Positions 730 through 50,816 of a DNA stretch of 51,907 bases are shown here, piece by piece. This DNA comes from a virus. The notes below the pieces were generated by a model that saw only the letters and a list, made by a program, of their open reading frames with translations, made no database searches and had not been told where the DNA came from. The DNA is taken from the IMG/VR virus record IMGVR_UViG_3300045988_151376, one strand, 5' to 3'. Each line of letters opens with the position of its first letter. Position 1 is the stretch's first letter. A program made the translations under genes and the position numbers.

Positions 730-1476
730 TCATTCAAGAGAAGACTGAAGAACCTGAACAACCGAATCGCGCCATTGAATTTGGAACCCTGAGTGGTTGT
801 TGCGCTCGTAAGGTCGGTTCTCGCCGTGAGCGGAGCCTGCTTCTGTCAGTTGCCACTGCTTGCCAACTTTTTTCTGGAATCCGAGCTTTTCTAGGAGCTT
901 GTTAACCTTGGCTGCGGCGGTTGTTGGGATGAGGCGTTTGCCGATCTCGGTCGGGTTGAGTAAGGCTGTCTCCGTTACTGGCACTGATGGAATGAGAGCG
1001 CGAAATGGGTCCGTTGGCATACCAATGTCCTTTTGGACCACCGAAAGCGCGTGCGCTGCCGCTCTTTCCTGCGGAACGTTGAACGTCTTGGCGAGCGTGT
1101 TCGCGATGAAAAAGGCAGCCTGAGCGCGCTCTATTGAGTAGGCGAGAGACTGCTGCGTTTTCTCATGCTGTGAACGAAGCTCGGTTTCCATTGCGTTAAA
1201 GGCGTTGATGTACTTGAGCTTCCATTCCATCGCTTTGCCTCCAGTAAAGCCCATAACGAGCAGACTGAAGCCGTCGCGGTTCATCAAAAACTCGGGGAAC
1301 GTTTTTCCACGGGAAGAGTAGGAACTTTCGATGAAAAATTTGGCGGCGGAATTTTCCGCCGTGAGAATTTCTCGGATGGCATAAAGCACATCTTTGTGTT
1401 CTTTCCCAAAGTTGTCAGCGATCTGCCGACTGCTCACAACTACTTGGTCGTTTACGACTTCAACAATTCCATTCAT
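730..1476 (-). CDS. Rha-family phage regulatory protein or antirepressor (paralogue 1)
   Basis: N-terminus VVSSRQIADNFGKEHKDVLYAIREI...FLMNRDGFSLLVMGFTGGKAMEWKLKYINAFNAME matches the Rha-domain pattern. Confidence 0.85.
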   Translation of the reverse strand: MNGIVEVVNDQVVVSSRQIADNFGKEHKDVLYAIREILTAENSAAKFFIESSYSSRGKTFPEFLMNRDGFSLLVMGFTGGKAMEWKLKYINAFNAMETELRSQHEKTQQSLAYSIERAQAAFFIANTLAKTFNVPQERAAAHALSVVQKDIGMPTDPFRALIPSVPVTETALLNPTEIGKRLIPTTAAAKVNKLLEKLGFQKKVGKQWQLTEAGSAHGENRPYERNNHSGFQIQWRDSVVQVLQSSLE

Positions 1477-1493
1477 GGTTTGAGTTCCATAGG

Positions 1494-1530
1494 TAAAAGA
1501 AAAGCCCCGGCGCTTTTCGGCGTCGAGGCT
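1494..1530 (-). terminator. Intrinsic terminator. Member of a two-copy repeat with 10612..10647
   Basis: aaaagccccggcgcttttcggcgtcgaggct: 10-bp imperfect stem with an A-run on the plus strand. Near-identical sequence occurs downstream of the paralogue at 10671. Confidence 0.55.
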
Positions 1531-1552
1531 GTTGGTTAGAAATAGGTATCAG

Positions 1553-2449
1553 TTACGCGGGCTGATGAGCCAGCCAGTGACGGTAGCAGGGCAGGTCTTC
1601 CATCCTGTAGCCGTGCTTGCTCAGGTCGTTCTCAATGAAGTAGAGATGCATGCACGTGAAGAACTCATAGAACTGCGCGGCAAGCGGCGATTTCATCTGA
1701 TTAAGCGTGTTGTAGAACGCCTGAATCTGCGGGCGGAAGAGGTACCGCAGGCAGTAGATTCCGGCGAGAAGGTTCTTTGCCTCTGCGTCCGTGAGGTAGA
1801 AGGCAGGAATCCTTTCCGGGATTCGCTCATCGCGGTAGGTCGTTGCCTCGATGCGCTTGCGTTCGGACTCTTCTTTCTGAAGCCACTGTTCGCGGCTCAT
1901 GATCGGAGCCTTCTGGATGAAGTCGAGAGCCGCTTCGAAGTCGCGCTTCTGCAGGCAGGTGTACCGCGGGATGCGGAAATGGTCCTTGAGGGCGGAGTAG
2001 ATCACGCGGAAGTTCTTCCCGATGCCGGCGGCGCGACGTCCGACTGCGCGCTGAATCTCGCGCTGTTGGGCCTCGTCGATGTAGTCGGGGCCGCCCTCGC
2101 CTGAGAGCGCCTTTTCCATCCGGTCGAACTCATCGATATAAGCCCACTTGAACTTGTCAGCTTTCTCGCCGGTAAAGCCCATGGCGAGGAACGTGAAGCC
2201 TGCTTTCGTGAGGGCATACGCCTTGTACTTCACGATGCCCTTTCCGAGGTTGGAAGGGCGCTCAAGCTCTACGGGGATGAAGTTCCCGCGACGATCTTCC
2301 GGCGTGCGCTGGATAATGTCTTCGACGTCGCGAAGGACGTGACGATGATTCTTTTCAAAGACGGCTGAGATGTTCGTCGTAAGGACGGTAGCAAGACCGT
2401 TGCAGACAGTGATAGCGGGCGCAGTGGTGCGCGTTTTGACAGCGTTCAT
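1553..2449 (-). CDS. Rha-domain antirepressor with shared ORF6C/KilA-C-like C-terminal domain (paralogue 2)
   Basis: Start moved to the ATG at 2449, which has the SD aaggaga 6 nt upstream. Rha motif FEKNHRHVLRDVEDII...LTKAGFTFLAMGFTGEKADKFKWAYIDEFDRME. The C-terminal half is shared with 4577..5398 and 10671..11555. Confidence 0.85.
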   Translation of the reverse strand: MNAVKTRTTAPAITVCNGLATVLTTNISAVFEKNHRHVLRDVEDIIQRTPEDRRGNFIPVELERPSNLGKGIVKYKAYALTKAGFTFLAMGFTGEKADKFKWAYIDEFDRMEKALSGEGGPDYIDEAQQREIQRAVGRRAAGIGKNFRVIYSALKDHFRIPRYTCLQKRDFEAALDFIQKAPIMSREQWLQKEESERKRIEATTYRDERIPERIPAFYLTDAEAKNLLAGIYCLRYLFRPQIQAFYNTLNQMKSPLAAQFYEFFTCMHLYFIENDLSKHGYRMEDLPCYRHWLAHQPA

Positions 2450-2634
2450 GCTTGTCTCCTTGAGAGGTTTAAGAACCTCGCTCCCACTTTCGACGGTGGT
2501 GGGCGAGGCATCGCGGGGTCGAAAACCGATCTCAAGGTATCGGCCACCCGAAGGTGCCCGCGAGCCTCTCCCATAAAGGAGACTTTCACGCAAGTCTGTG
2601 ATTTTCTCTAGAAGCCCAAAATTGGGCACCTAAG

Positions 2635-2722
2635 AAAAAAAGCCGCTTCCAACGGTCGGCGGCTTTCTTGCGCCTTGAGATCAGTCGGGTTTCGACGCCC
2701 GTCCCCGTCGCTTTCACGGGGC
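2635..2722 (-). ncRNA. Candidate ~90-nt terminated leader RNA or small RNA (copy A)
   Basis: Runs from the predicted transcription start just downstream of the promoter to the hairpin agccgc-N12-gcggct plus U-run. Contains the hairpin ccccg-tgaaagcga-cgggg. Duplicated at about 5576..5660. Confidence 0.4.
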
Positions 2723-2728
2723 AGGGAT

Positions 2729-2757
2729 ATTCTGCCCGATCTTAGGCGCTGTGTCAA
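2729..2757 (-). promoter_or_regulatory. Sigma70-type promoter (TTGACA-17-CAGAAT), leader copy A
   Basis: Minus strand: TTGACA (2752..2757), 17-nt spacer, CAGAAT (2729..2734). Confidence 0.6.
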
Positions 2758-2790
2758 AATACTATATGCGTTCGTACATCGGAGAAACAG

Positions 2791-3615
2791 ATGCCTGAAG
2801 TCGTTGCCTCAAATGCTGATATTGAAGTCTTGGATAACTGCAGTCACAAGAATGGGCATCGTTACTGGCTAGCGAAGGAGTTCATGCTACGTTTGGGATA
2901 TAGCTCTTGGGACCAGTTTAGGAGGGTCATTAACAGGGCTATTGCTTCATGTGCAAAGTTAGAACTGGACGTCTCTGAGGCATTTGAACAGATCCGTAGC
3001 GACGATGGCCGACTGGTTGACTACAAGCTGAACCGGTTCGCTTGCTTTCTGATTGCGACTTACGCTAACGACAAAAAGCCTGAAGTGCAACGCATCAAGA
3101 TAGCCCTGTCTGCCTTTGCTGAGACAGTTATCCAAGCCGCAATCGACTCGAACAGCGTCCTCCGTATAGAGACGCGAGAAGATCTAAAGTCTGCGGAAAA
3201 GCTCTTGAGCTCAGCCGCAAAGGAAGCCGGAGTTAACTCAGGCGAGTTTGGGCTATTTAAAGACGCAGGATTCCGAGGCATGTACAACATGTCTCTCGCG
3301 GATCTCCGGGCCCATAAGGGCGTGATTGGTAACGGACGTAAGTCTCCAGTTTTATACGACTTCATGGGCATAACGGAACTGGCGGGCAACTTGTTCCGAG
3401 ATACGCAAACCGCGGAGCGCATTCGCAGTAAAAATGTTCGTGGGCTTAGAGAAGCCGCAGATTCTGCACGAACGGTTGGTAAAGAAGTGCGCGACATGAT
3501 GATCCGAAATAGCGGTGTCAAGCCGGAAGACTTACCCGTTGAGGAAGACGTCAAGAAAGTGAAGACTCGTCTCAAGAAGGCCAGTCGAACCATGATCAAA
3601 CATGACAAAAATTGA
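2791..3615 (+). CDS. dinD: DNA-damage-inducible protein D (DinD)-like protein
   Basis: Collinear similarity, from memory, to E. coli DinD (HMGSTELAANLFRATQTEEKL versus FMGITELAGNLFRDTQTAERI here). RBS ggagaaacag before the ATG. Opposite strand to its neighbours. Confidence 0.75.
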   Translation: MPEVVASNADIEVLDNCSHKNGHRYWLAKEFMLRLGYSSWDQFRRVINRAIASCAKLELDVSEAFEQIRSDDGRLVDYKLNRFACFLIATYANDKKPEVQRIKIALSAFAETVIQAAIDSNSVLRIETREDLKSAEKLLSSAAKEAGVNSGEFGLFKDAGFRGMYNMSLADLRAHKGVIGNGRKSPVLYDFMGITELAGNLFRDTQTAERIRSKNVRGLREAADSARTVGKEVRDMMIRNSGVKPEDLPVEEDVKKVKTRLKKASRTMIKHDKN

Positions 3616-3801
3616 ACGCATTTTGGCCAATCACGTCATTTTGATGCCGTCTGCCTAAGCGCGCATCCACGTGGGAGGCGGTTTTCACTGCTTATCCTAG
3701 AAGGCAAGCGGCATCAAGATGAAGCCCCTGGGCGGGGCTGAAATCCAAATTAAGTTTGGGGTTTATGATGATTTTTTACTCTTCATTCTGGCGGCCCCTT
3801 T

Positions 3802-3945
3802 TTAGCTGATGACGACGGACTGACGGTCTTCGAGAGCCGCGCCGGGAATGACCTCACCGGATTTTAGGGCCTTTTTGAGGGCCACTTTATCCGGGTCGAT
3901 GGTCGTTTTGACGTGCTTGAATGCGTCGGCGGCTGCGCAGCTTTT
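3802..3945 (-). pseudogene. Start-less remnant duplicating the C-terminal ~41 aa of the Gp157-like gene at 7213..7704
   Basis: The frame translates to DAFKHVKTTIDPDKVALKKALKSGEVIPGAALEDRQSVVIS*, versus EAFRRIKTTIDPDKVALKKALKDGETIPGAALEERQSVVIS* at 7213. It is bounded upstream by an in-frame TAG and has no start codon. Confidence 0.75.
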
Positions 3946-4049
3946 CTAGCTTTCTTTGCACGTGCTGACCGCGTTTTGATTGCTCTACGTGCATCACGAC
4001 TCAATTCGTGCTTAGGGCGCCGATGTGGGTGGGAGGGAATACTCATCAT
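3864..4049 (-). CDS. Doubtful 61-aa basic ORF that runs out of frame into the Gp157 remnant
   Basis: Good RBS (gaggag 6 nt upstream of ATGATG), but the C-terminal half is an out-of-frame reading of the remnant. Possibly a decayed fusion. Confidence 0.25.
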   Translation of the reverse strand: MMSIPSHPHRRPKHELSRDARRAIKTRSARAKKARKAAQPPTHSSTSKRPSTRIKWPSKRP

Positions 4050-4061
4050 GCAGGCTCCTCA

Positions 4062-4337
4062 TTACGCCCCGCGGGACTTGTAGAAATTGTGCCAATCCTG
4101 AACGAGTTGGCTGAATTCCTTGGTCTTGCTGATTTTTTTACTTAGCCACGATTCAAAATCCTCAAGTGAAGGATCTTTGACGCAGCGGCTGTACCATTGG
4201 TAAACGATAATTGCCTCACGTCCGCGGGCTGCGATTGCTTCTTGGGTCGCTAATTCGAGTCTTGCGCCCAGAGCAACATTCAAAGCGGCGCCGCCAACTA
4301 AGTGTTGCAGCGCGGTGGTGATGACTTTGACGTTCAT
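4062..4337 (-). CDS. Hypothetical protein (91 aa)
   Basis: ORF with RBS aggag. No recognisable domain. Confidence 0.55.
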   Translation of the reverse strand: MNVKVITTALQHLVGGAALNVALGARLELATQEAIAARGREAIIVYQWYSRCVKDPSLEDFESWLSKKISKTKEFSQLVQDWHNFYKSRGA

Positions 4338-4348
4338 TGGCTGAACTC

Positions 4349-4510
4349 CTAAAAAAGTACGTAACCATTAAGAACTGCCCACTGCATGAGCAGGCAGAGT
4401 GAGATACCGAGAGCGCTGATACCGGCGCCAGTCAGAAAGGCGCAGAAGATGATTGCGGTATCGCTGAACCCAGTACGTTCGTTGTGGCCGAGAAGTTTTT
4501 TCAACGTCAT
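4349..4510 (-). CDS. Possible small membrane protein (53 aa; below the ORF-track cutoff)
   Basis: Hand translation MTLKKLLGHNERTGFSDTAIIFCAFLTGAGISALGISLCLLMQWAVLNGYVLF*. The stop overlaps the RBS of the next gene. Its own RBS is weak. Confidence 0.3.
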   Translation of the reverse strand: MTLKKLLGHNERTGFSDTAIIFCAFLTGAGISALGISLCLLMQWAVLNGYVLF

Positions 4511-4521
4511 GTCGTTCTCGG

Positions 4522-4558
4522 AAAAAAGAAAGGCCCCGGCAGGTGAGTGCCGAGGCCT
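4522..4558 (-). terminator. Intrinsic terminator after the BRO-N antirepressor gene
   Basis: Minus strand: ggcctcggca-ctcacc-tgccggggcc followed by tttctttttt. Confidence 0.6.
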
Positions 4559-4576
4559 ATTAAGAAAATTAGGTGA

Positions 4577-5398
4577 TTACGCGGTTAAGCGCTTGGGCTG
4601 TTGCGAAGCCCAGTGTTGGTAGCACGAGAGATCTTTCACCGAGTATCCCTGCTTGGCTAGAGCATCTTCCATAAAGCCAAGTCCCAGATCATTAACGGCT
4701 TCCCAAAAATGAGCTGCGAGAGGGGATTTCACGCGGCGCAAGAGCGCTAAAAAGAGATTCAGATCGTCTCGAAAGAGATATCGCCAGTAATAGATAAAGA
4801 CAACGATTTTCTCGGCCATAGCCTCGTCGATCACGATTGACCCTTCGGGAATTGCCGGAGCCGAAAGCTGCGGCTTAAGTGTGCATGTCTCGATGAGTGC
4901 GAGTGCTGCTTTCATCTGATCGTGTCTTAGGTCTTTGTAGCTCGCGATCTTGAAGTAATCGTAAAGAGCGTTGTAGACCGTCTGGTAGTGAACCGATGAG
5001 TTCTTTGCGCGTGACTTGATAGCTTTGCGGATCTCGTACTGCTCTGTAGTCGTGATCAGCGCGGACTGGTCTGTTTCGTAGCGTCCCGTGCGGCGAATCG
5101 CCGGCAGAACTTCCGACGTTACCCAGCGCTTGAAGCGTTTTGCGCTCTCCAGCTTGGAGCCGAAGATCAGTGCGTAGAGGCCGGACTCGGTGACGCAGTT
5201 GACGGTTTGCGTGCGGCCCATGCTGTCGGTGATCTCGGCCTTGACGATGTCTTCAGGGTCGACAAGATCGGCAATCGCCTTACGCGGATTGCTGTGTGAG
5301 AGCGCCTTGCAGATGTCGGTTGCGACAAAAAGAGGCGCTTCAGGCGTGCCAAGGGTGCGGACGGAAGAATTCTCAAAAGAGAAAGTGAGTGCAGACAT
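4577..5398 (-). CDS. BRO-N-domain antirepressor with the same shared C-terminal domain (paralogue 3)
   Basis: N-terminus FENSSVRTLGTPEAPLFVATDICKALSHSNPRKAI...SGLYALIFGSKLESAKRFKRWVTSEVLPAIRRTG fits BRO-N. The C-terminus aligns with paralogues 2 and 4 (VKSPLAAHFWEAV...GYSVKDLSCYQHW). SD aaggaga. Confidence 0.85.
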   Translation of the reverse strand: MSALTFSFENSSVRTLGTPEAPLFVATDICKALSHSNPRKAIADLVDPEDIVKAEITDSMGRTQTVNCVTESGLYALIFGSKLESAKRFKRWVTSEVLPAIRRTGRYETDQSALITTTEQYEIRKAIKSRAKNSSVHYQTVYNALYDYFKIASYKDLRHDQMKAALALIETCTLKPQLSAPAIPEGSIVIDEAMAEKIVVFIYYWRYLFRDDLNLFLALLRRVKSPLAAHFWEAVNDLGLGFMEDALAKQGYSVKDLSCYQHWASQQPKRLTA

Positions 5399-10670: not shown

Positions 10671-11555
10671 TTACGCGGGCTGATGGCTCAGCCAGTGTTT
10701 GTAGCAAGGAAGCTCCTTGACGCTGTATCCGATCTTGTCGAGAGAGGCTTCAAGGTTCAGCCAGTTGAAGTCGTGAACGGCTTCCCACATGGATGCAGCG
10801 TAGGGCGAATCGACGCTTCGGAGGAAGTCCACATAGCGCTCGAGGTTTGCGCGATGCAGGTAGCGCCACGTGTAGACGAGAGACCGTAGTTCCTCCATGA
10901 AGTGCGCCTTGACGGTGTAGACCTTCGGCGGGATCGGCTCGTCGTGATAAGTGGCAGCCTCGATGCGCTTCATCTGAGCCTTTTCATGCTCGATGCATTC
11001 TTCACGCGTCATGATTTTGACTGACTGGATGAAGGAGATTGCGGCCTCGAAGTCTTTTTCGAGAATCCGCTTGTAGCTGGGGACGTTGAAATGATTTTTC
11101 AGCGCCGAGTAAATCGTTTGATAGTTGATCCCGTAGCCTTCGGAGCGGCGGCCTACTGCTCTTTGGATTTCGCGTTGCTGTGCGTCGGTGATATATGCCG
11201 GAGCGGGAGGATTCTTCAGCGCCTGTTCCATCCGCTCGAACTCATCGTAGAAAGCACACTTGAATTCGAGCGCCTTAGCACCGGTGAAGCCCATAGCCAA
11301 TAGACAGAAGCCCTTGCGATCCATCCAGTACGCAGGAACCTTTCGAGTAGCACCCTTGTCGTTCAGACTGACTGTTTCTGAGTATCGCGCAAAATTGCGT
11401 AATACTTGAAGTTCTTGATTTTTTGCAATTAGGTCATCTACCGCGCGAACTACGTCGCTGTGCTTTTTGCCAAAGTATTCTGCAACTTTGAAGCTGGACG
11501 TAACCGCACGGCCTTCAACCACACGGAAGGCATTTTGAACAATGTTCTGAGCCAT
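10671..11555 (-). CDS. Rha-domain antirepressor with shared C-terminal domain (paralogue 4)
   Basis: Start moved to the ATG at 11555 (SD aaggag). Rha motif FKVAEYFGKKHSDVVRAVDDLI...WMDRKGFCLLAMGFTGAKALEFKCAFYDEFERME. C-terminus GYSVKELPCYKHWLSHQPA. Confidence 0.85.
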   Translation of the reverse strand: MAQNIVQNAFRVVEGRAVTSSFKVAEYFGKKHSDVVRAVDDLIAKNQELQVLRNFARYSETVSLNDKGATRKVPAYWMDRKGFCLLAMGFTGAKALEFKCAFYDEFERMEQALKNPPAPAYITDAQQREIQRAVGRRSEGYGINYQTIYSALKNHFNVPSYKRILEKDFEAAISFIQSVKIMTREECIEHEKAQMKRIEAATYHDEPIPPKVYTVKAHFMEELRSLVYTWRYLHRANLERYVDFLRSVDSPYAASMWEAVHDFNWLNLEASLDKIGYSVKELPCYKHWLSHQPA

Positions 11556-11760
11556 TGTGAACTCCTTTACATATTTGATTAATCGCCCCTTTTGAGAGGG
11601 CGGCCAAGCGCTCAAAACCGTGTAAAGGCGGCGGGCATATTTCCCTTTCGGGTTTTTTATTAGCCTCACGCTCAGCCATGAGCTGAGCTATCCGCGCCCA
11701 TAGGGCTACAGATACAAAAAAATCCGCATGACTGACAGGGCGGAATCCGCTTTACAGGTG
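11556..11760 (-). promoter_or_regulatory. 5' leader of paralogue 4 with its own anti-SD/SD pair
   Basis: Minus RNA: e2 CCUUUACA (plus 11621..11628) is complementary to UGUAAAGG at the SD (plus 11564..11571). An upstream UGUAAAG (plus 11750..11756) precedes a weak hairpin with U7. Confidence 0.45.
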
Positions 11761-40351: not shown

Positions 40352-40438
40352 GTGCTGATTTTGTGCGGCATTGCCGGTTTTACGGCTTTGACTGCTGGTC
40401 TTGCCGTTCTCGTTTGGAAGAGAGTGTTCAAAGAATGA
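40352..40438 (+). CDS. Possible 28-aa TM mini-ORF coupled to the first tail-fibre gene
   Basis: GTG start; VLILCGIAGFTALTAGLAVLVWKRVFKE*. The TGA overlaps the tail-fibre ATG (ATGA). No ATG start. Confidence 0.2.
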   Translation: MLILCGIAGFTALTAGLAVLVWKRVFKE

Positions 40439-41499
40439 GCAAATATCCACCTCATCTTTTGTCGTGCCCAATTGCCCAAAACGGCGACAAGGCCGCAGTC
40501 CCTGTGACGGCTCAGGAAGCCGGTGCGGGGCGACTCAGTCAAGAAGAAGGCTGGGGGGCATGGAACTCCCGCCCTATCGGTGAGGGCGGCATCCCGCCGA
40601 AACGCGAAGACTTTAACTCCGTACTGAATTTGCTTTCGTCCTTTTTGGTTTACTACCAGCAAGGCGGGGTCATGAAGTACTCCGCCTCACTTGACTATGA
40701 GCCGGGCAATGAAATCTTCTCCGCCACGGGTACGAAGTGCCGGTGCCTCGTAGCGAACGGCCCCAACACCGCAAAGGGTGTAGTCGCTCCCGGATCGGAT
40801 AAGACTGTATGGAAGAACCTTGATGCGCCATCCGTTATCGCCGGTCAGATCACGCCTTTCTACAACTGTCGGCTCGGCGGCTCTGACGGTCGCCGCCTGA
40901 TCCCGTGGGGCGAGAGCGTCGCCGACGAGCGGTACGTACTTTGCGACGGCGGCACAGACGGCTTGGGCGGGAACGTCCCGAACCTGATGGATAAGTTCCT
41001 CCTGCCGAGCACGGTCGCGCAGGCGGGACAGACGGGAGGTAGCCTCAACCTCTCGATCCCGGGCGTGACCGTCAACGGCACGGTCGGGGAGACGGTGCTT
41101 ACGGTCGAGCAGATGCCCGCGCACACGCACACAGGCAGTTCATCGACTGCGGGCGCGCATACGCACACTCGCGGCACGATGGAGATTACAGGCGCGATCC
41201 CCGTGGACGATCACAAGATCCGCTATGTCGAGGGGGCCTTTTATCAAAACGGGAACTATTCCAACTGCGACAACCGCGACTCAGAAAACGACTCTCCTCG
41301 CGCGTCCTTTGCGGCTTCGAGAACGTGGTCCGGGGAAACGTCGTCTGGCGGCTCGCACTCGCACACGATGAATCTAAACTCGACCGGTGGCGGGCAGGGG
41401 CATACGCACACAATCACGAGCTCATCCGAAGCGCAGACGCTCACGCTAGACCGTCCGCCTTTCTATCGTCTCGCTTATTTTGTCAAACTGCCGGAGTAG
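40435..41499 (+). CDS. Tail fibre protein 1 with phage tail-collar domain and His-rich HTHT repeats
   Basis: Start moved to the ATG at 40435. YVLCDGGTDGLGGNVPNLMDKFLL is the collar motif. Also PAHTHTG, GAHTHTRG, GSHSHTM, GHTHTI and a C-terminal PPFYRLAYFVKL. Confidence 0.85.
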   Translation: MSKYPPHLLSCPIAQNGDKAAVPVTAQEAGAGRLSQEEGWGAWNSRPIGEGGIPPKREDFNSVLNLLSSFLVYYQQGGVMKYSASLDYEPGNEIFSATGTKCRCLVANGPNTAKGVVAPGSDKTVWKNLDAPSVIAGQITPFYNCRLGGSDGRRLIPWGESVADERYVLCDGGTDGLGGNVPNLMDKFLLPSTVAQAGQTGGSLNLSIPGVTVNGTVGETVLTVEQMPAHTHTGSSSTAGAHTHTRGTMEITGAIPVDDHKIRYVEGAFYQNGNYSNCDNRDSENDSPRASFAASRTWSGETSSGGSHSHTMNLNSTGGGQGHTHTITSSSEAQTLTLDRPPFYRLAYFVKLPE

Positions 41500-41505
41500 T
41501 AAGGC

Positions 41506-42789
41506 ATGGCATCAAAAGAATTTCATTTCCATTACGTCAAAACGCCGACCGGAGCAATAAGTGGGCAGTCTGTCCTTACGCAGACAGAGGACGCGATCAA
41601 TGACCTCGGCGACTATATGTTCGAGGCTACGGGCGACGCGACCGAGGCGTTGAATAAGGCTACTGAAGCGCTCAACACGGCGAATACGGCTCAGCAAAAT
41701 GCGGCCGAGGCGCTCTCTACTGCGAATTCTGCGATTGGTAAGGTCAACACCTTAACCGCGACCGTCAATTCGTTTGATGGTCGCATCAAAAAGGCTGAGA
41801 GCAACGCGGCTAATGCCGTCACTGCGGCGACTGAGGCATCTAATAATGCCTCTCAGGCAGTCACAACGGCCAATTCTGCGCTTAATACGGCTCAGCAGGC
41901 CGTCACGACGGCCAATGCCGCGAAGACGATGGCTCAGAATGCAAGCACTGCGGCTACTCAGGCCGTGGGCACGGCCGGCGCGGCGAATGCGACGGCGGAA
42001 GAGGCGAAGAAGATTGCTCGGCAGGCCGTGACCGACACGGACGGCATCCGCGAAGAAATCAATCAGAACATGGCCGTGATGACCCAAAAGGTAACCGAGG
42101 CCACGACGCAAGCGCAGAACTCCGCGTCCTCCGCCGCCCAATCACAGGCCAATAGTGACCTTTCTAAGCGGTGGGCGACATGGACGACGGGCGTAGAGAC
42201 CGAAGGCGGCACGGACTACACCGTCGCCGATGACGGCTATTCGTCCAAGTGGAATGCTCAGCTCGCTCAGGCATGGGCGGTGAAGACTGACGGCAAGGTG
42301 ACGGAAAACAACCTGCCCGATGGAGCTGAGATCGACTACTCGGCAAAGTACTACGCTCAGCAGTCGCAGGCTAGCGCAACAGCGGCGGACGCCTCTGAAG
42401 CCTCTGCGCTCTCTTCGAAGACCGCGGCGGCATCGAGTGCGGCGGCGGCCAAGACGTCTGAGACAAATGCCGCCAATTCTGCATCTGCGGCTAATACTTC
42501 AAAGACAGCGGCGGCAGGCAGTGCTACTACTGCAAGCACGAAGGCAACGGAGTCGTCTGCTTCTGCGCAAAAAGCGAAGGACTGGGCTTCAAAAGAGGGC
42601 GGCCCGGTTGAAGGCGAAGGCGCTACAGCAGAGTATTCTGCGAAGTATTACGCGCAACAAGCGAATCAGAGCAATAGCGTGAAGTACGTTGCTCAGACGC
42701 TTACGACTGAAGAGCAGTTGCAGGCTCGAACGAACATCGGAATGACGACACTAAGTAATTCCGAAATCGATGCCTTGTTTAGCGCCTAA
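41506..42789 (+). CDS. Tail fibre protein 2 (Ala/Ser/Thr-rich coiled fibre)
   Basis: Repetitive A..SA..A heptad-like shaft. The SAKYYAQQ motif occurs twice, as in P2 H / Mu S-type fibres. Confidence 0.8.
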   Translation: MASKEFHFHYVKTPTGAISGQSVLTQTEDAINDLGDYMFEATGDATEALNKATEALNTANTAQQNAAEALSTANSAIGKVNTLTATVNSFDGRIKKAESNAANAVTAATEASNNASQAVTTANSALNTAQQAVTTANAAKTMAQNASTAATQAVGTAGAANATAEEAKKIARQAVTDTDGIREEINQNMAVMTQKVTEATTQAQNSASSAAQSQANSDLSKRWATWTTGVETEGGTDYTVADDGYSSKWNAQLAQAWAVKTDGKVTENNLPDGAEIDYSAKYYAQQSQASATAADASEASALSSKTAAASSAAAAKTSETNAANSASAANTSKTAAAGSATTASTKATESSASAQKAKDWASKEGGPVEGEGATAEYSAKYYAQQANQSNSVKYVAQTLTTEEQLQARTNIGMTTLSNSEIDALFSA

Positions 42790-42888
42790 GTTGAAGCTCC
42801 CCCGTTTAAAAACGGAGGATTCACCATGACACTCTCAAGGTTGTTTTCAGGGGGCAAAGCCGCCTGAGCGTCACCCAATCAATTGCAC

Positions 42889-42933
42889 AAAAAAGCAAAC
42901 CCCGCAAGGTTCACGGCCTTAGCGGGTTTTTTT
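42889..42933 (+). terminator. Hairpin family copy H5 (near-identical to H1)
   Basis: aaaaaagcaaaccccgcaaggttcacggccttagcgggttttttt. Confidence 0.65.
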
Positions 42934-42947
42934 CAAGAGGAAAAGAC

Positions 42948-43556
42948 ATGGCTGGATATTTGGATGCGTCGGGTCTCAAACATTTCAAGAGGAAAAACGA
43001 CGCTACATATCTTGGCAAGCAGGAGAAGGCGGCTTCGGCGAAGGTCGCAGACTCAGTCGTTTGGGAGAACGTTTCCGGGAGGCCGGATCTATCTGCATTA
43101 ATTCCGCCCGGCACGATCATCCACTACGCCGGGCGCACGGTCCCGAGCGGCTGGCTCATCTGCAACGGCGCGAATGTGAGCCGAACCGACTACGCGGCCC
43201 TTTTCGCGGCTATCGGTACGATCTACGGTGCCGGCAACGGGTCGACAACCTTTGGCCTGCCGAATTTGAACGGTCGCTTCCTCGAAGGCACTACCTCGAC
43301 GTCAGAAGTCGGTACCTATAAGTCAGCGGGGTTACCGAACATAAAGGGCTACTTCAGCAACAACGGGGATGGGCGGTTCGAGACTAGCAGTGGCTCTTTT
43401 ACTAACAACACCTCAGTGACGCATAGCCACAGCGGAAATAACGCTAATGAAGGTCGGGGATTTAACTTTAGTGCTTCGAAATCCTCGTCTTTTTATGGCC
43501 AATCTTCAACGGTTAAACCCCCGGCGATGGTGGCTTTAGTCCTGATCAAGTCTTAA
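42948..43556 (+). CDS. Tail fibre protein 3 (tail-collar domain); expressed tip variant
   Basis: PSGWLICNGANVSRTDYAALFAAIGTIYGAGNGSTTFGLPNLNGRFL is a textbook collar motif. C-terminus ...STVKPPAMVALVLIKS*. Confidence 0.85.
   Translation: MAGYLDASGLKHFKRKNDATYLGKQEKAASAKVADSVVWENVSGRPDLSALIPPGTIIHYAGRTVPSGWLICNGANVSRTDYAALFAAIGTIYGAGNGSTTFGLPNLNGRFLEGTTSTSEVGTYKSAGLPNIKGYFSNNGDGRFETSSGSFTNNTSVTHSHSGNNANEGRGFNFSASKSSSFYGQSSTVKPPAMVALVLIKS
43335..43342. repeat. Left copy of the 8-bp inverted repeat CCGAACAT (candidate crossover site), in frame at Pro130-Asn-Ile
   Basis: Exact reverse complement of 43760..43767. Same codon phase (CCG AAC AT) in both cassettes. Confidence 0.4.
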
Positions 43557-43759
43557 TGAGGGCTAGTGTCGCCAGTGCCGCTGGTTGAACTACACTGGTC
43601 GCTCCGTATACGCTAGACGACAGGTTTGCGTAAAACTCTCGCCGAAGAGAATTGAACGAACCACCCCCGTACCGAGACGTACCCTGCATCGCCGAATTGG
43701 TCGAGAAACACCCGTCGGTCCCGTCACCCTGGTTAAGACCAGCAATGAGTCCGCCTGTG
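43343..43759. other. Predicted invertible segment carrying two convergent tail-fibre tip cassettes
   Basis: Bounded by the inverted 8-mers. Contains the expressed tip (plus strand) and the silent tip (minus strand), with overlapping stop codons. Confidence 0.4.
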
Positions 43760-43806
43760 ATGTTCGGCCATTCAATTTGGCGTTTTCGGGGCTTGAACGC
43801 GTTGCC
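43546..43806 (-). other. Silent (start-less) alternative tail-fibre C-terminal cassette, 86 codons
   Basis: Hand translation GNAFKPRKRQIEWPNITGGLIAGLNQGDGTDGCFSTNSAMQGTSRYGGGSFNSLRREFYANLSSSVYGATSVVQPAALATLALIKT*. Homologous to the last ~75 aa of 42948..43556 (LPNIKG / WPNITG; SFYGQSSTVKPPAMVALVLIKS / SVYGATSVVQPAALATLALIKT). Bounded upstream by an in-frame TGA, with no start codon before the homology begins. Confidence 0.75.
43760..43767. repeat. Right copy of the 8-bp inverted repeat (ATGTTCGG on the plus strand)
   Basis: Reverse complement of 43335..43342. Confidence 0.4.
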
Positions 43807-43846
43807 TCAGCACTGTGCCAAGCCCCACAGATCGGAAGCGCTATGG

Positions 43847-45016
43847 CTAAGGGTTGTCGCTGCGGCCATTGGGAAGCAGAGGCATCAGCCCGGCACTTCG
43901 GGCACAGTGCTCAAGGTAGTCGCTCCACGCCCGCATGACCGCTCGTCTCGCGTCGAGGTAATCGCTCCTTTGATAGGCGCGGGATACCTGAGAACCTGAG
44001 ACGTGAGAGAGGCAGGCTTCGGCGACTTCGAAGGGTGTGCCCATGTCCGCCATCCAACAGCGGGCCATTGATCGCAGGCCGTGGGCCACAAGCCTTCCGG
44101 CGAGCGTGGTTCCGTGCAGGTACTTGGCGAGTGCTTGGGAAGAGATGTGGGAGCCGGGATCGCGCCCGGCGAAGACGTAGGAGCTTCTGGGGTGCGGGGA
44201 GAGGGATGCTTCCTTGGCGAGGAGAAGGCGCATGAAAGTGGTCAAGGGGACGCGGTGCAGGCATCCATTTTTCATCTCAGCGGCAGGGATGGAGAGGGTG
44301 TCGCCGTCGATCCACGCCTTCCGGAGCTTGGCGGTTTCTCCGGGCCGGAGCATGGAAGCGAGGGACCAAAGAAAGAGGGTTTGCGTGCGCATTGGAGCGC
44401 ACTTGACTACTGCCAGCGCGTCCGGAAGAGATTGCCATGAGATCGACGGCATGGGTCTGACGATGGGGGCAGCGAAGACTCTGCTGACTCTGGCAACGGG
44501 GTTGTGAAGGATGTAACCGGCGCAGACGGCCAAATCCATGATCTCGCGCGTTCGCATCAGCACGCGTTTGAGTGTGGCTTGATGGCCTGCGGCTTCGATG
44601 TGCCGGACGGTCGCGATGATGAGGGGAGCGGTGATTTCGTCGAGCTGACGGCGACCGAGAGGGGCGATGACATAACGCTCAAGGCGGCGCTTTTCATCCA
44701 TGTAGGAGGTGATTCTGCCGCGCTTGAGATTGCACCACAGGCGGAAGGCGTCTGAAAGGACGTATCCACGGGGCGGCTCCTGCCCTAACTCCTTCCGCTT
44801 TCTGCGGGCCAGTTGCCGGGCCTGCATCAGAGAAACCTCGGGCCATCGTCCGAGGCTCAGATCAGTAACCCTGCCTCCGTAGGAAATGCGGAGACACCAA
44901 CTTTTGACCCCCGAGGGGTGAACCCGAAGGGTGAGGCCGTGGCTATCTGTCACGGTGTAACGCTTTTCACGCGGTCGCAAGGCCGCAATTTTTCTTGTAG
45001 AGAGGTTTTTCGACAT
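43847..45016 (-). CDS. Tyrosine recombinase, P4/CP4-57-type (DUF4102-like N-terminus); candidate tail-fibre invertase or second integrase
   Basis: ATG at 45016. N-terminus LSTRKIAALRPREKRYTVTDSHGLTLRVHPSGVKSWCLRISYGG...LGRWPEVSLMQAR. Catalytic context MLRPGE, HGLRSMA, LSHV...RAYQRSDY. Confidence 0.9.
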   Translation of the reverse strand: MSKNLSTRKIAALRPREKRYTVTDSHGLTLRVHPSGVKSWCLRISYGGRVTDLSLGRWPEVSLMQARQLARRKRKELGQEPPRGYVLSDAFRLWCNLKRGRITSYMDEKRRLERYVIAPLGRRQLDEITAPLIIATVRHIEAAGHQATLKRVLMRTREIMDLAVCAGYILHNPVARVSRVFAAPIVRPMPSISWQSLPDALAVVKCAPMRTQTLFLWSLASMLRPGETAKLRKAWIDGDTLSIPAAEMKNGCLHRVPLTTFMRLLLAKEASLSPHPRSSYVFAGRDPGSHISSQALAKYLHGTTLAGRLVAHGLRSMARCWMADMGTPFEVAEACLSHVSGSQVSRAYQRSDYLDARRAVMRAWSDYLEHCARSAGLMPLLPNGRSDNP

Positions 45017-45785
45017 GAAGCCCAATGAGATCAAAGAAATCCCGCACGTCGATGAGGATGGCTACTTTGATGGCATGGTGGCCTGCATAGCCGACGCGAA
45101 GGGCTCGCTGATGCTCGGCGCGGACTGCTATGACATCGCCGCCCCCGAAGACGATGGGAAGCACTTTTTCAAGCTGTCTGCCGACAAAAATGGCTGGGTG
45201 GCGGAAGCTATTCCGCAAACAGTCGAGGAATGCGTCGGCATCGTGCTCGATCATCACAAACAGACGAAAAGAATTCACAAACTCCGCACGGCTTTCGATG
45301 AGCTCACGAAGAACTCGACGACCTATCGCCTGGTCCAAGACCCGGAAACGAATGCCCGCTCGATCGAAAAGATTCCGGAACAGACTGTTGAGGAAGCGCG
45401 CTCCGAGAAGATGCGGGCCCTCGACTCTGACTTTACGTCTTGGTATGAGGACGGCGCGACACTAAAGTCTTCTCTGGGCTTCGAAGCCGACTCGGACTCC
45501 CGCGCCATGCAGGACGTGAACGGCCTAGTCACGGCGGCGGAATCTTCGGCCGCCTTCGTGGACACGGAGAGCGGGGGCGGTCTGATCTTCATGGACGCCA
45601 ACAACGTTGGGCATCAAGTCAGTCTTGACCAACTCAAGGCTCTGCAGCTCGAAATTATTCAGGCCGGACAGGCAGCCTATCAGGAAAAATGGAAGCTGCG
45701 CGACGCGATTGAAAAGGCGAAGACGAAAGAGGAGCTGGGAAAGATCGTCATCGCCTTCCATCCGGTTGACTTCTCTACGAAGTGA
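45015..45785 (+). CDS. Tail-fibre assembly or chaperone-like protein (DUF4376-like C-terminus)
   Basis: GFEADSDSRAMQDVNGLV...FMDANNVGHQVSLDQLKALQLEIIQAGQAAYQEKWKLRDAIEKAKTKEEL resembles DUF4376. Its ATG overlaps the recombinase ATG on the other strand (CATG). Confidence 0.55.
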   Translation: MKPNEIKEIPHVDEDGYFDGMVACIADAKGSLMLGADCYDIAAPEDDGKHFFKLSADKNGWVAEAIPQTVEECVGIVLDHHKQTKRIHKLRTAFDELTKNSTTYRLVQDPETNARSIEKIPEQTVEEARSEKMRALDSDFTSWYEDGATLKSSLGFEADSDSRAMQDVNGLVTAAESSAAFVDTESGGGLIFMDANNVGHQVSLDQLKALQLEIIQAGQAAYQEKWKLRDAIEKAKTKEELGKIVIAFHPVDFSTK

Positions 45786-46189: not shown

Positions 46190-46339
46190 ATGATGCAAGG
46201 GGTGGTTATGCATGCCTTCACTCTTGCTTCGTGTCAGATTATGCCACACGACATCGTTGTGGTGACGGGCGACATCAATATTGATGGGCTCGTCATTGCC
46301 GTCATTATTGCGGCGTGGCTGATCGGCAAGAGGCGTTAA
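46190..46339 (+). CDS. Possible 49-aa C-tail-anchored peptide
   Basis: Hand translation MMQGVVMHAFTLASCQIMPHDIVVVTGDINIDGLVIAVIIAAWLIGKRR*. Confidence 0.3.
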   Translation: MMQGVVMHAFTLASCQIMPHDIVVVTGDINIDGLVIAVIIAAWLIGKRR

Positions 46340-46396
46340 GCCGCAGGGGTCGTTCTTCTTCGGGAGTTCGGCCCCTCTTGCTATCTGTCTGCTCAG

Positions 46397-47752: not shown

Positions 47753-47790
47753 GTTCTTTACGAACATGAATTAGCAAGAGGATTGTACCA

Positions 47791-49248: not shown

Positions 49249-49451
49249 GTTGTGTCTAACTCTACGGCCCTCCTGCGGCTCTAGGGAAGACAGTCGCCAT
49301 TACGGCGCGTAAAGGCTCGTCTGCCATTCCTAAACCCCGTGTACAGCTCTTGACGGATGTCCACCAAGATGTACACCATAGAAGCGCGATTACCGGTGAA
49401 AGCGATTTCCGCCCGGATTTTTTGTGTACATCAGGAAAGGAGCCTGCTGAG

Positions 49452-50816
49452 ATGCCAAGAGTTGCAGAGAGGATGACAGAAAAGCGCCTGCGGAGCCTGA
49501 CGAAAGGTTGCTCCTGCGGCGTCGTTCCGGGCCTTGAGGTGCGCGTGCGCACTCTGGGCGACGGGAGCACGGCAAAGTACTTTTTGCTTCGTGACCGTGC
49601 GACGGGTAAGGCGTACCAGATCGGACAATATCCGAAGGTCTCGCTCTCTGAAGCATTCAAGACTGCGGCCGAGTGGCGCGAAAAGATTAAGGCGGGGATT
49701 GATCCGGTTGCTGAGAGAAAGGCGCTGCGCATGTCTCTTCAGTCTGAGGAGCCCGCGCCGGCTGTTCTGACCGTCCGGGAGATGGTCTACGGGTGGATTC
49801 GGTTCAATGAGGAGCGGGGGAGATGGAAGAACGCTCGCAAGCCGAAGGAGCGAGTGTGGGATGGGTACTGCAGCAACCACTTCGCGCCGGACTTTCTTTC
49901 GATGCCGGCGAAGGACGTGACTGCTGAGCTTCTATACGACGAGTTGGGGGAGAAGTGGCGCACCATGATCGATACGCCGGAGAGGATTCTGAGCGATATG
50001 CGTAATGCCTACGACTGGGCAATGCGGCAGGAGATGATTCCCGTAATGATGAATCCGGCCCGTGTAGCCGGAGGGAAGCTCGGCGATATGCTGTCCCTCG
50101 CTCGTCCCGAGGGCGGCCATGAGCCCGCGCTGCCGCCTAAGCGCATGCCGGCTTTCTTTGCTGAGCTGATGAAGCTCGTGCCGCGCAGTCAGTCTGCGCG
50201 CTGTCTGGCCTTCGCCATTCTCACGTCGGCCCGCAATTCAACCGCCAGAGAGGCCACGTGGGATGAGATTCAGCAGGACGATGAGGGACAGTGGTTCCAC
50301 GTCATCCCGCGCGAGCGGATGAAAATGAAGTCAGACAAGATTCCTTTTGACCGGAAAACGCCGCTCTGCGCTCCGGCGAAAAGTCTTCTGGACACCGCGC
50401 CGCGCTTTCCGGGCGAAGGCCGCAACTTCATCTTCCCGAATATCAATCAGGGGAACATGTCGCCCTTCTCGCTCGATGCGGTTCGCTCGTTACTGAAGAG
50501 AATGCACGACAGGCAGCGCGCGAAGGATGGCATAGGGTGGGTCGATCCGGAGCAAAAGGCGAAGGACGGTAAGCCGAGGATTGTCACCCTTCACGGTCTA
50601 GCGCGGGCCACGTTCAACACGTGGGCGAAGGACGCGAAGGGCTACGGCCATAAGTCCTTCTCCCGTGACCTGCGGGAAAGCTGTCTCGATCACCGCAATG
50701 AATCGTACCAATGCGCCTATGACCGTGAACAGGCGTTGGGCGACATGAGAGAGGTTTATGACGCTTGGGGAAAATATTGTTGTGCAATGTTGACAATAAC
50801 TCCAAAAGTGATATGA
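49452..50816 (+). CDS. Tyrosine integrase (IntA/P4-like); probable phage integrase
   Basis: ATG at 49452 (RBS aaggag). MTEKRLRSL..GLEVRVRTLGDGSTAKYFLLR...IGQYPKVSLSEAFKTAAEWR. Catalytic context TSARNSTAREATW, LHGLARATF, LDHRNESYQCAYDR. Confidence 0.9.
   Translation: MPRVAERMTEKRLRSLTKGCSCGVVPGLEVRVRTLGDGSTAKYFLLRDRATGKAYQIGQYPKVSLSEAFKTAAEWREKIKAGIDPVAERKALRMSLQSEEPAPAVLTVREMVYGWIRFNEERGRWKNARKPKERVWDGYCSNHFAPDFLSMPAKDVTAELLYDELGEKWRTMIDTPERILSDMRNAYDWAMRQEMIPVMMNPARVAGGKLGDMLSLARPEGGHEPALPPKRMPAFFAELMKLVPRSQSARCLAFAILTSARNSTAREATWDEIQQDDEGQWFHVIPRERMKMKSDKIPFDRKTPLCAPAKSLLDTAPRFPGEGRNFIFPNINQGNMSPFSLDAVRSLLKRMHDRQRAKDGIGWVDPEQKAKDGKPRIVTLHGLARATFNTWAKDAKGYGHKSFSRDLRESCLDHRNESYQCAYDREQALGDMREVYDAWGKYCCAMLTITPKVI

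Follow-up and report, generated by a model that had tools for sequence, protein, structure and literature searches.

The region at positions 42,948 to 45,016 of the DNA analysed here is very probably a shufflon, to judge from its sequence and that of its relatives, which exchanges the last ~70 residues of a small tail-fibre protein with a collar domain in a Sutterella phage. The window, i.e. the whole stretch analysed, is the IMG/VR record IMGVR_UViG_3300045988_151376 of 51,907 nucleotides; its source is a temperate, circular 51.8-kb Sutterella phage from the gut, and in the near-identical contig L061 the window end is joined directly to the window start. The support comes from contig-versus-contig comparison across different samples in a set of about 70 related public contigs, where precise inversions, deletions and cassette permutations are found among near-identical genomes. 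The present genome occurs in the samples JGI 3300007793, HMP SRS050925, SAMN00036141 and SAMN00070934, and its relatives with four cassettes in SRR8387656/60, SRR29703383/84, DRR874766 and SRR33441942. The relatives were found mainly via protein-anchored look-ups, which were far more productive than exact-pattern or metagenome scans: a 21-mer of the window left junction gave no hit in an exact-pattern scan of IMG/VR, and the recombinase-proximal junction matched one contig (L053) in a metagenome scan. Furthermore, a 5.8-kb blastn query returned short collar-domain matches only, and no related phage record, among isolated and GenBank phages. The initial annotation had placed a tyrosine recombinase beside an invertible fibre tip, which is now strongly supported at the level of the family. 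It had also likened the layout to the two-state switches of Mu G and P1 C; the invertible fibre tip stands, but the window turns out to be a shufflon cut down to two cassettes, of a type that can hold up to 10.

The tail-fibre gene (42948..43556, + strand) encodes 202 amino acids with a Phage Tail Collar domain (PF07484, E=4e-25). Its constant part (42948..43334, +; residues 1-129, with the Pfam Collar domain at residues 55-112) ends in ...AGL right before the left recombination site, where the expressed tip cassette E begins (43335..43556, +; 73 codons plus stop), recognised by an HMM of C-terminal tips with E=3e-26. On the opposite strand lies the silent tip cassette B (43546..43767, −; 73 codons plus stop), delimited by the HMM of tips and the fibre alignment. 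It has no start codon, and the minus-strand frame that contains it (43546..43806) has none ahead of an internal Met. The silent frame is 38% identical to fibre residues 130-202 (pairwise E=3e-9), in agreement with the start-less homologue of the fibre C-terminus that had been proposed on this strand, the homology being that of the last ~73 codons. The two cassettes indeed converge with overlapping stop codons, as had also been described: their frames share 11 nt (43546..43556), with TAA at 43554-56 and the minus-strand TGA at 43546-48. Translation reaches a cassette only if it is fused to the constant 5′ part (aa 1-129). AlphaFold2 prediction of the 202-aa fibre with 39 close homologues gave a mean pLDDT of 38 and no usable model.

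Both window cassettes are seen in relatives as expressed, silent forward and silent reverse. Cassette E (97% nucleotide identity) is silent forward in L002, silent reverse in L007 and expressed in L067-L072, and cassette B matches, with 97% identity, the tip that L001-L007 express (protein P0001); the last ~15 nt of B come from another cassette, A, which gives it a chimeric 3′ end. When the constant part was joined in silico to the silent cassette, the resulting 202-aa protein matched P0001 and P0002 over its full length with 96% and 93% identity, respectively, and both of these proteins are encoded on syntenic phage contigs. P0001 (tip B) and P0127 (tip E) have an identical 129-aa constant part, which among public proteins is joined to at least 5 different C-terminal tips.

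Each cassette starts with a short site. The left one (CCGAACAT followed by AAAGGG; 43335..43348, +) has its 8-bp core at 43335-43342 and encodes P-N-I-K-G; the right one (CCGAACAT followed by CACAGG; 43754..43767, −) has its core at 43760-43767, which reads ATGTTCGG on the + strand. The 8-bp inverted repeat in the same Pro-Asn-Ile phase in both cassettes, pointed out in the initial annotation, is therefore present as described. With the sites inverted, the 417 bp between the cores (43343..43759) form the predicted invertible segment; the native left junction is GGGGTTACCGAACATAAAGGGCTACTTC, and the flipped left and right junctions are predicted to be GGGGTTACCGAACATCACAGGCGGACTC and GAAGTAGCCCTTTATGTTCGGCCATTCAATTTGG. 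The bare 8-mer is unremarkable, with 3 occurrences in the window against 1.76 expected, and 2.4 kb contain 173 pairs of inverted repeats that are 8 nt or longer. The family consensus CCGAAYATMANNGG has exactly 2 copies in the window, at both cassette starts, where 0.03 would be expected, and none of 100 shuffles reached 2. Across the family the cassette-start site is CCGAAYAT-MAnnGG, which also encodes P-N-I-T/S/K-G; one written-out form of the full-length site is CCGAACATCACGGG. The 8-bp core is alike at all sites inside each of 44 loci, and the differences between lineages, whose core variants are CCGAACAT, CCGAATAT, CCTAACAT and CCAAACAT, are synonymous only. Such uniformity per locus fits a DNA-level need for identical crossover regions. 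It is not absolute, as L056-L058 carry six CCGAATAT and two CCGAACAT sites. In overall appearance these three loci resemble chimeric arrays. The 79-bp spacer from the last site to the recombinase stop codon (43768..43846) contains a hairpin (GGGGCTTG...CAAGCCCC); its position is conserved, its sequence is conserved only inside lineages, and alignment revealed no cross-lineage motif. Moreover, a search of six loci for 9-mers recurring in the array and its flanks found no arm-type repeats, and only the core sites and the conserved cassette 3′ ends recur.

In the relatives, 2, 4, 6, 8 or 10 cassettes separate the constant fibre part from the recombinase, both the same as in the window, and form convergent, tail-to-tail pairs with overlapping stop codons; at least 64 cassette families occur, in arrays of up to ten ~220-bp tip cassettes. 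The blocks B, D, E and A and a 362-bp spacer, which are 99.2-100% identical in nucleotide sequence and have constant flanks, occur in four arrangements that differ in order and orientation, their breakpoints lying at the 8-14-bp site, namely N B+ D- sp E+ A- (L002, L003), N B+ D- sp A+ E- (L007), N E+ A- sp' B+ D- (L067, L068, L071) and N E+ A- sp' D+ B- (L069, L070, L072, and partially L010 and L053). Between L002 and L007 one 430-bp segment is inverted, bounded exactly by CCGAACAT and ATGTTCGG, with an identity of 99.5% when inverted and 39% when compared directly, and its flanks are 98-100% identical. L016 and L017 differ by two inverted segments of 430 and 436 bp, each 100% identical when inverted. 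In addition, over a total of 145 sites the unchanging non-cassette flanks (among them the constant part and both spacer ends) meet differing cassettes exactly at the 8-mer, and the recombinase-proximal flank ...CCAAATTGAATGG is joined precisely at the 8-mer to 5 different cassette partners in other contigs. Since the breakpoints across relatives fall exactly at the 8-mer, we conclude that it is the recombination site. The difference between L001 and L002 requires a deletion between direct sites. Not all of the rearrangements can be inversions, and homologous recombination seems to be needed too, as the B/A chimera in the window suggests. Under the definition of a shufflon (Komano 1999), a constant 5′ part is combined with alternative 3′ segments, of which the window has one expressed and one silent, and border repeats hold the breakpoints, as the 8-mer does here for inversions, permutations and one deletion.

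The gene beyond the silent cassette, at a distance of 79 bp, encodes a P4/CP4-type tyrosine recombinase of 389 aa (43847..45016, −) with the domains Arm-DNA-bind_3, Phage_int_M and Phage_integrase. The arm domain is detected in Pfam with E=6e-16, and the N-terminus matches the arm domain of a CP4-like integrase (3jtz, E=2e-11), so the assignment of a P4-type enzyme beside the right repeat holds. The catalytic residues R224, K249, H312, R315, H338 and Y348 do not vary among 25 unique homologues, whose identity ranges over 55-99.7%, and the arm domain is conserved to the same degree as the catalytic domain. In 40 IMG/VR loci and other related contigs, recombinases of 63-100% identity are followed, where the flank suffices, by cassettes and then by the constant fibre part, which was located by tblastn. 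Back to back with the recombinase gene, as had been observed before, lies the gene of a DUF4376 protein (45015..45785, +; Pfam DUF4376, E=2e-9), the two ATGs overlapping in a CATG at 45014-45017. It is syntenic in nearly all related loci, its product is probably a fibre assembly factor for all tips, and the block of shufflon, recombinase, DUF4376 and lysis genes is common to phages of two baseplate and fibre types.

We propose that the adjacent tyrosine recombinase (43847..45016) would pair two inverted sites, and that strand exchange, with cleavage presumably inside the 8-bp core, would invert the intervening DNA and fuse another tip in frame. In the window, which may still be switching, one inversion of 43343..43759 would replace tip E by tip B, and such a replacement would be expected to alter the host range. 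The DUF4376 product, encoded outside the invertible DNA, may help to assemble all tips via their conserved C-terminal motif. The window itself is probably a two-cassette derivative of a four-cassette array, arising when the similarity of the A and B 3′ ends led to a homologous deletion.

Other explanations were weighed against this mechanism. The enzyme has the domain architecture of P4 integrases and its nearest annotated homologues are integrases, which would suit a conventional phage integrase with attP in 43557..43846, next to a cassette that is a decaying remnant; the initial annotation had named both as points that would speak against a switch. However, L060 and L064 (99.96% identical), which are integrated copies, follow the window up to 49223 and then pass into the host genes coaE-zapD-yacG...secA, and the recombinase gene lies ~4 kb inside the integrated prophages, with phage genes on either side and no adjacent attP. 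Because the prophage junction at 49223 is beside the second integrase (int2, 49350..50816), the fibre-adjacent enzyme is not the phage integrase; integration falls to the second integrase, with its attP at about 49223, and the earlier suggestion that a second integrase leaves the fibre-adjacent recombinase dispensable for integration agrees with this position. The remnant was rejected as well, for the cassette is conserved, intact and expressed in other contigs, and all 103 silent cassettes of the relatives have an open frame of 67-89 codons, while random frames of such length are stop-free in 22%. Taken together, we regard this explanation as scarcely credible. It would also be conceivable that the inversions are site-specific but are catalysed in trans by a recombinase of the host or another element, the adjacent gene having another role. 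Trans-acting invertases exist, such as Mpi in Bacteroides. In addition, an inversion locus that has no recombinase of its own is described for a bifidophage (PMC6109161). Against this stand the adjacency of recombinase and array, which is kept over 63-100% identity and in two different baseplate and fibre backgrounds, the core variant, which follows the recombinase clade, the joint truncation of the recombinase and the adjacent cassette (now a fragment) in L050-L052, and the result that tblastn with an approximate Gin query found no Gin-like serine invertase gene in the window (best E=4.8). A catalyst acting in trans is hence improbable, and the adjacent recombinase appears to be the catalyst. 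Even less probable is ordinary homologous recombination between co-infecting phages as the only source of the tip diversity, with the 8-mer as a mere P-N-I codon motif. The motif does encode conserved residues, and homologous recombination does occur, as seen in the 3′ end of the silent cassette of the window and in the chimeric-looking L056-L058, but the breakpoints lie at 8-14 bp of identity, far below the needs of RecA-type exchange, and are exact in many independent pairs. Furthermore, the inverted segments are otherwise 99.5-100% identical, and the synonymous core positions are uniform per locus and different between lineages.

With the family taken as a shufflon, the copy in the window could still be locked or nearly so, with tip E effectively fixed and tip B a stranded spare. 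At site position 10, 107 of the 109 distinct sites have C or G, and A is found in the window lineage only (AAA, Lys, instead of AC/AG), a change of the left site that could weaken or lock it; of the 15 E-tip proteins listed for its cluster, the window protein alone has PNIKG. L051 and L052, two relatives with a deleted recombinase, show drift at the same position as well (CATGGG). The near-identical contigs L008, L060, L061 and L064, from different samples, all have the E+ B- orientation, and the exact flipped product of the window genome is absent from a collection of 15 billion proteins in which the native product is present. On the other side, the recombinase is intact and does not differ (100% identity) from the enzyme of clearly rearranged loci, neither window site has a mismatch in the 8-bp core, and the silent cassette has kept its frame open and intact, at 97% identity to copies that are expressed; moreover, assemblies give the majority orientation only, so that a minority form would escape notice. 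A locked copy therefore seems to us doubtful, though by no means far-fetched, and a shufflon that can still invert is the reading we prefer for the window as well.

The initial annotation had been aware of no established arrangement of this kind for phage fibres, but the literature does hold a precedent: in 2018 the Rin shufflon was published for Bifidobacterium prophages, where a tyrosine invertase encoded by the phage acts on a receptor-binding protein (Mavrich et al., PMC6109161). Similar shufflons are reported for Eggerthella prophages (PMC8778435) and BV01-like phages (PMC13596623). As in the Sutterella phages, the gene for the phage-encoded, tyrosine-family Rin recombinase flanks alternative C-terminal segments of a tail protein with one constant N-terminus, and short asymmetric repeats (the 11-bp rix) lie at the cassette starts, the inversions there being inferred or observed. 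The differences are that Rin, as taken from its description (PMC6109161), is XerD-like and lacks the arm-type domain, while the Sutterella enzyme has a conserved P4-type arm; that the site is TTCCCTAACCC for Rin and CCGAAYATMAnnGG here; that the Rin hosts are Actinobacteria and the phages siphoviruses, in contrast to a betaproteobacterium, a contractile tail and a collar-domain fibre; and that the Rv cassettes are described as tandem genes, as opposed to tail-to-tail pairs with overlapping stops. The BV01-like Phocaeicola phage is, like the present one, a temperate gut phage, and the 2026 preprint (PMC13596623) describes a multi-cassette array over the distal end of a tail-fibre gene, flanked by a recombinase, with read-level heterogeneity and 10-bp directional motifs as sites. 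Compared by that description, it differs in host phylum, site (TGGGAGAACT) and its non-homologous cassettes of differing length.

The pilV shufflon of R64/IncI1 also has a tyrosine recombinase (Rci) beside a multiple-inversion array of at least 4 segments with many permutations, a constant 5′ part, alternative 3′ tips, and a short conserved site core with only one conserved arm. Its target is a conjugative pilus adhesin rather than a phage fibre, and deletions between direct sites, which seem to occur here (L001 versus L002), are a further difference. Rci, for which Pfam gives the catalytic Phage_integrase domain only, is 28% identical to the Sutterella enzyme over 152 aa (BLASTP, E=0.005), in the catalytic domain only and with no closer kinship. 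In Mu G/Gin, P1 C/Cin, p15B Min and the FRphi gin shufflon (PMC13418256) a fibre C-terminus is likewise swapped by inversion next to the recombinase gene, and the host range changes with it. However, Gin/Cin-type systems have serine invertases, a Fis-dependent enhancer and chaperone genes inside the segment, whereas the Sutterella locus has a tyrosine recombinase, ~220 bp cassettes and a single DUF4376 gene outside the invertible DNA; a serine invertase is what defines the Gin/Cin/Pin/Min group, and the adjacent enzyme is of the other family. With P4/CP4-57-type integrases the enzyme shares the three-domain architecture and the residues R-K-H-R-H-Y, but its gene lies away from the prophage ends and invariably accompanies inverted fibre cassettes. 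Its closest characterised relatives (~33% identity) are annotated as integrases of phages and plasmids. It is fairly likely, in our judgement, that an arm-bearing integrase of the P4/CP4 type was recruited as a shufflon invertase, with an origin independent of Rci and the armless Rin, in a widespread group of Sutterella phages from the human gut. Host-range fibre switching is known in other phages, but not with an arm-domain integrase-type enzyme nor in Sutterella phages, and in the searchable literature no description of the Sutterella phage shufflon family was found.

If this is true, the family would represent a second lineage of phage-encoded tyrosine invertases acting on receptor-binding proteins, derived from an arm-bearing integrase, and retention of the arm domain would imply that the inversion synapse is assembled or controlled in a new way, which raises the mechanistic question of the role of this domain in the inversion reaction. 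A presumed host-range determinant of a common phage of Sutterella wadsworthensis would also be identified. Dozens of permutations are available, together with four variants of the core, arrays of mixed cores and locked forms that have lost the recombinase, so that the data set suits tests of the rules that govern the sites. For the annotation of viromes, assemblies may break at the site: contigs L005, L037, L042 and L053 stop at the core 8-mer or no more than 3 nt away from it, a pattern that branching of assemblies at this point would produce. Together with the different arrangements in different samples, these ends hint that several arrangements may coexist in one clonal population. The arm domain is easily hidden too, as gene callers routinely shorten the recombinase to 324-326 aa.

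The tail-fibre gene at 42948..43556 (+) encodes 202 amino acid residues with a Phage Tail Collar domain (PF07484, E=4e-25) and is followed on the opposite strand by a silent frame (43546..43806, -), which has no start codon before an internal Met and which, from P-N-I-T-G at 43767 to the stop, is homologous to fibre residues 130-202 (38% identity, pairwise E=3e-9). The two frames are convergent and overlap by 11 nt (43546..43556), and the 8-mer CCGAACAT opens both cassettes in inverted orientation (43335-43342 (+) and 43760-43767 (-)) and in identical codon phase. Thus, the start-less homologous cassette, the overlapping stops and the exact inverted repeat described in the initial annotation are all present. 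The 8-mer by itself is within chance: it occurs three times in the window, where 1.76 occurrences are expected, and 2.4 kb contain 173 short inverted repeats. The family consensus CCGAAYATMANNGG is restricted in the window to the two cassette starts (0.03 expected). The gene beside the right repeat (43847..45016, -) was annotated as a P4-type tyrosine recombinase, which agrees with its Arm-DNA-bind_3, Phage_int_M and Phage_integrase domains and with the similarity of its N-terminus to the CP4-like integrase arm domain 3jtz (E=2e-11). The DUF4376 gene (45015..45785) lies head to head with it, and the two ATGs indeed overlap in a CATG at 45014-45017. Upstream of the tail-fibre gene, a 378-aa fibre protein (40363..41499) contains repeated H-x-H motifs (AHTHTG, AHTHTRG, SHSHTM, GHTHTI) resembling the metal-binding fibre tips of T4 gp12/gp37, and a portion of it matches the cassette HMM weakly and incompletely.

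The protein predicted after inversion of 43343..43759 was built in silico and searched against 5.8 billion protein clusters, yielding two 202-aa matches over the full length (P0001, 96%, and P0002, 93%), whose contigs are syntenic (baseplate J, wedge, two fibre genes, fibre, silent cassettes, recombinase, DUF4376, lysis module). Many more matches have the 129 constant residues in common and diverge only past G-L-P-N-I, and the exact constant part of the window occurs with other tips in four public proteins. Moreover, the public fibre proteins P0001 and P0127 have an identical constant part but carry tip B (the silent cassette of the window) and tip E (the expressed one), respectively. When the cassettes B, D, E and A and the 362-bp spacer (sp, sp') were compared among related contigs, blocks of 99.2-100% identity with constant flanks were found in four arrangements behind the constant fibre part N: N B+ D- sp E+ A- (L002, L003), N B+ D- sp A+ E- (L007), N E+ A- sp' B+ D- (L067, L068, L071) and N E+ A- sp' D+ B- (L069, L070, L072; partially L010 and L053). 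L002 and L007 differ by one 430-bp segment with the inverted 8-mers exactly at its borders (99.5% identity inverted, 39% direct), and L016 and L017 by two segments (430 and 436 bp), which are 100% identical when inverted and have flanks of 98.8-100% identity. Further permutations separate L028 from L029 and L027 from L034. In addition, L001 has the sequence of L002 except that the DNA lying between two sites in direct orientation is missing, so deletions or insertions at the sites occur too, and the recombinase-proximal flank joins five different cassettes at the 8-mer. Compared with L002 at 97% identity, E of the window corresponds to a silent forward copy, and B to the expressed copy in inverted orientation. 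Four public contigs (L005, L037, L042, L053) end at the core 8-mer or within 3 nt of it, which suggests that the assembly graphs branch there because these samples contain two or more arrangements side by side. The proposal of an invertible fibre tip beside a tyrosine recombinase is therefore supported at the level of the family.

A recombinase-anchored protein scan of IMG/VR gave 40 loci with 63-100% identity, and a GTDB scan with the recombinase led to an uncultured Sutterella MAG. A tip HMM was built, every locus was mapped, and clustering of the cassettes at 88% nucleotide identity gave 64 families. Where the flank suffices, alternating tail-to-tail pairs totalling 2, 4, 6, 8 (L056-58) or 10 (L038) cassettes lie beyond the recombinase gene, and the constant fibre part comes after them. 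Every complete cassette opens with CCGAAYAT and then MAnnGG, and the flank of the site outside the cassette is not conserved, which means that each site has one conserved arm, as do the sfx sites of R64. The silent cassettes with a site have an open frame of 67-89 codons in 103 of 103 cases (chance per frame 22%), and the reading of the silent cassette of the window as a decaying remnant is rejected. In each of 44 loci there is one 8-bp core, and the lineage cores CCGAACAT, CCGAATAT, CCTAACAT and CCAAACAT differ at synonymous positions only; such uniformity within a locus is required of the overlap region of tyrosine recombinases and goes beyond what coding constraint explains. The exception is L056-L058, where a recombinase of the CCGAACAT clade is combined with a mostly CCGAATAT array, six sites having CCGAATAT and two, those adjoining the recombinase, CCGAACAT. 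These three contigs have an identical arrangement, their constant part differs from that of the window by 1 nt, namely the core C/T, and their fibre gene directly follows the wedge gene, the two upstream fibre genes (window 40363..42789) being absent. In L059, L062, L065 and L066, the same recombinase-DUF4376-lysis block and array lie on a different Mu-like baseplate (Gp45, GP46, Baseplate_J, Gp48), with collar fibres of another length (247-344 aa), indicating that the shufflon module is exchanged between phage backbones. The spacer between the cassette pairs of four-cassette relatives (L002 6848-7209) contains a small hydrophobic ORF of 62 aa together with a terminator-like hairpin, paralogous to the 49-aa ORF 46190..46339 of the window and its surroundings (46040-46400); the spacer is inverted along with the shufflon, which moves this small gene to the other strand.

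In the most probable mechanism, the recombinase would pair two inverted sites, exchange strands within their shared core and invert the DNA between them, whereby a different tip of ~70 residues would be fused in frame to the constant collar-domain part. Moving cassettes mostly retain their own positions 8-13, from which we infer that the exchange takes place within or just beside the 8-mer. The tips have a conserved C-terminal motif in common (S-x-Y-G-x-S-S-x-V-Q-P...L-I-K), and the single DUF4376 gene lies outside the array, so that its product may be an assembly factor common to all tips. The examples of Mu, P1, Rin and FRphi (PMC6109161; PMC13418256) suggest by analogy that tip switching may alter receptor choice.

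The first 99 nt of the window equal the last 99 nt (1-99, 51809-51907), and in the 100% identical L061 the end of the window runs into its start, which gives a circular genome of 51,808 bp opened at an arbitrary point. Judged from its genes (Rha/Bro, S24 repressor, terminase, portal, capsid, DUF3383 sheath-like protein, baseplate, lysis), the phage is temperate and has a contractile tail. The host is Sutterella, since a S. wadsworthensis RefSeq protein belongs to the E-tip cluster and a Sutterella MAG carries the locus. L060 and L064, which are integrated copies (99.96% identical), follow the window only as far as 49223 and then continue into host coaE-zapD-yacG-NUDIX...secA, which places attP (region 49070-49350) just upstream of a second integrase gene, int2 (49350..50816), for which a plausible attP had been anticipated. 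The attP is ~4 kb from the shufflon recombinase, which is barely related to int2 and has phage genes on either side in the prophage copies.

That the recombinase is instead the conventional integrase of the phage is refuted by this junction beside int2 and has next to no probability, its P4-like sequence notwithstanding. An invertase acting in trans is improbable, considering that the recombinase and the array are conservedly linked and that the core variant tracks the recombinase clade. Homologous recombination alone is still less probable, and as the main process it is excluded by exact breakpoints at 8-14 bp of identity. A locked remnant in the genome of the window, which would be compatible with a shufflon in the family, is unlikely but carries the most weight among the alternatives: AAAGGG in its left site encodes Lys, a residue that none of the 14 other E-tip proteins listed has at this place, and of 109 distinct sites, 107 carry C or G at the position concerned; the near-identical L008, L060, L061 and L064 are all E+ B-; and the exact sequence of the flipped protein predicted for this genome is absent from the protein collection. 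Against it, the recombinase has remained intact and does not differ from the enzyme of relatives that rearrange. The silent cassette of the window equals B except for its last ~15 nt, which come from A as paired with E in four-cassette arrays. The array of the window is a reduced one, consistent with loss of 'A- spacer D+' by homologous deletion in an ancestor arranged as N E+ A- sp' D+ B-. In L050, L051 and L052 (IMG/VR), only residues 1-77 of the recombinase are left, adjoining an incomplete cassette (HMM positions 46-72); these are apparently locked deletion derivatives, and the remaining site has drifted to CATGGG in L051 and L052.

Contrary to the view that this arrangement is not established for phage fibres, tyrosine-recombinase shufflons on phage receptor-binding proteins have been described (PMC6109161); the initial reading is supported for the family, with its claim of novelty corrected. 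The Rin shufflon of Bifidobacterium prophages, reported in 2018, uses 11-bp rix sites and a recombinase without arm domain (PMC6109161), and is also found in Eggerthella prophages (PMC8778435). In BV01-like Phocaeicola phages, a shufflon of the tail fibre has been described and is supported at the level of reads (PMC13596623). A systematic survey of programmed inversions found tail fibres to be common targets and also reports a PilV-tail-collar fusion as one (PMC9881135). No paper in the searchable literature combines Sutterella, phage and shufflon. The similarity of R64 Rci (NC_005014) to the recombinase is limited to the generic catalytic domain, and Rci has no arm domain in Pfam, whereas the recombinase has one; it is thus outside the Rci and Rin enzyme families, although shufflon-like in its working. 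Its nearest annotated relatives are P4-type integrases (~33% identity), to which it belongs by sequence but not by function, namely action at an adjacent attP. It also matches phrog_1 integrases and, below the curated cut-off of that model, an NCBIfam integrase-domain model. R224, K249, H312, R315, H338 and Y348 are kept in 25 unique recombinases (55-99.7% identity), and the arm and catalytic domains are equally conserved (mean pairwise identity 70% and 71%). We consider it probable that an integrase-type invertase bearing an arm domain was independently recruited as a shufflon enzyme in a widespread gut-phage family.

Public gene calls give a 324-326-aa recombinase lacking the arm domain (for example L001 6927..7907, L060 4598..5578), although all 389 codons form an open and conserved frame; the gene caller likely kept clear of the DUF4376 start, with which the full gene overlaps head to head by 2 nt, and only in L004, where the contig ends at this point, was the full length called. 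Elsewhere in the window, the early-left region (730..5398 and 10671..11669) contains three Rha-family and two Bro-N genes, several with an ORF6C domain, an unusually high number of antirepressor-like paralogues. Furthermore, a hairpin element of the type AAACCCCGC...GCGGGTTTTTT recurs between late genes (~39600-39660, 42885-42930, 47720-47770, 48020-48060), seen as the near-identical peptides ANPARF[AT]ALAGFF and ANRAAFLFF in spurious ORFs, and these hairpins are probably repeated terminators.
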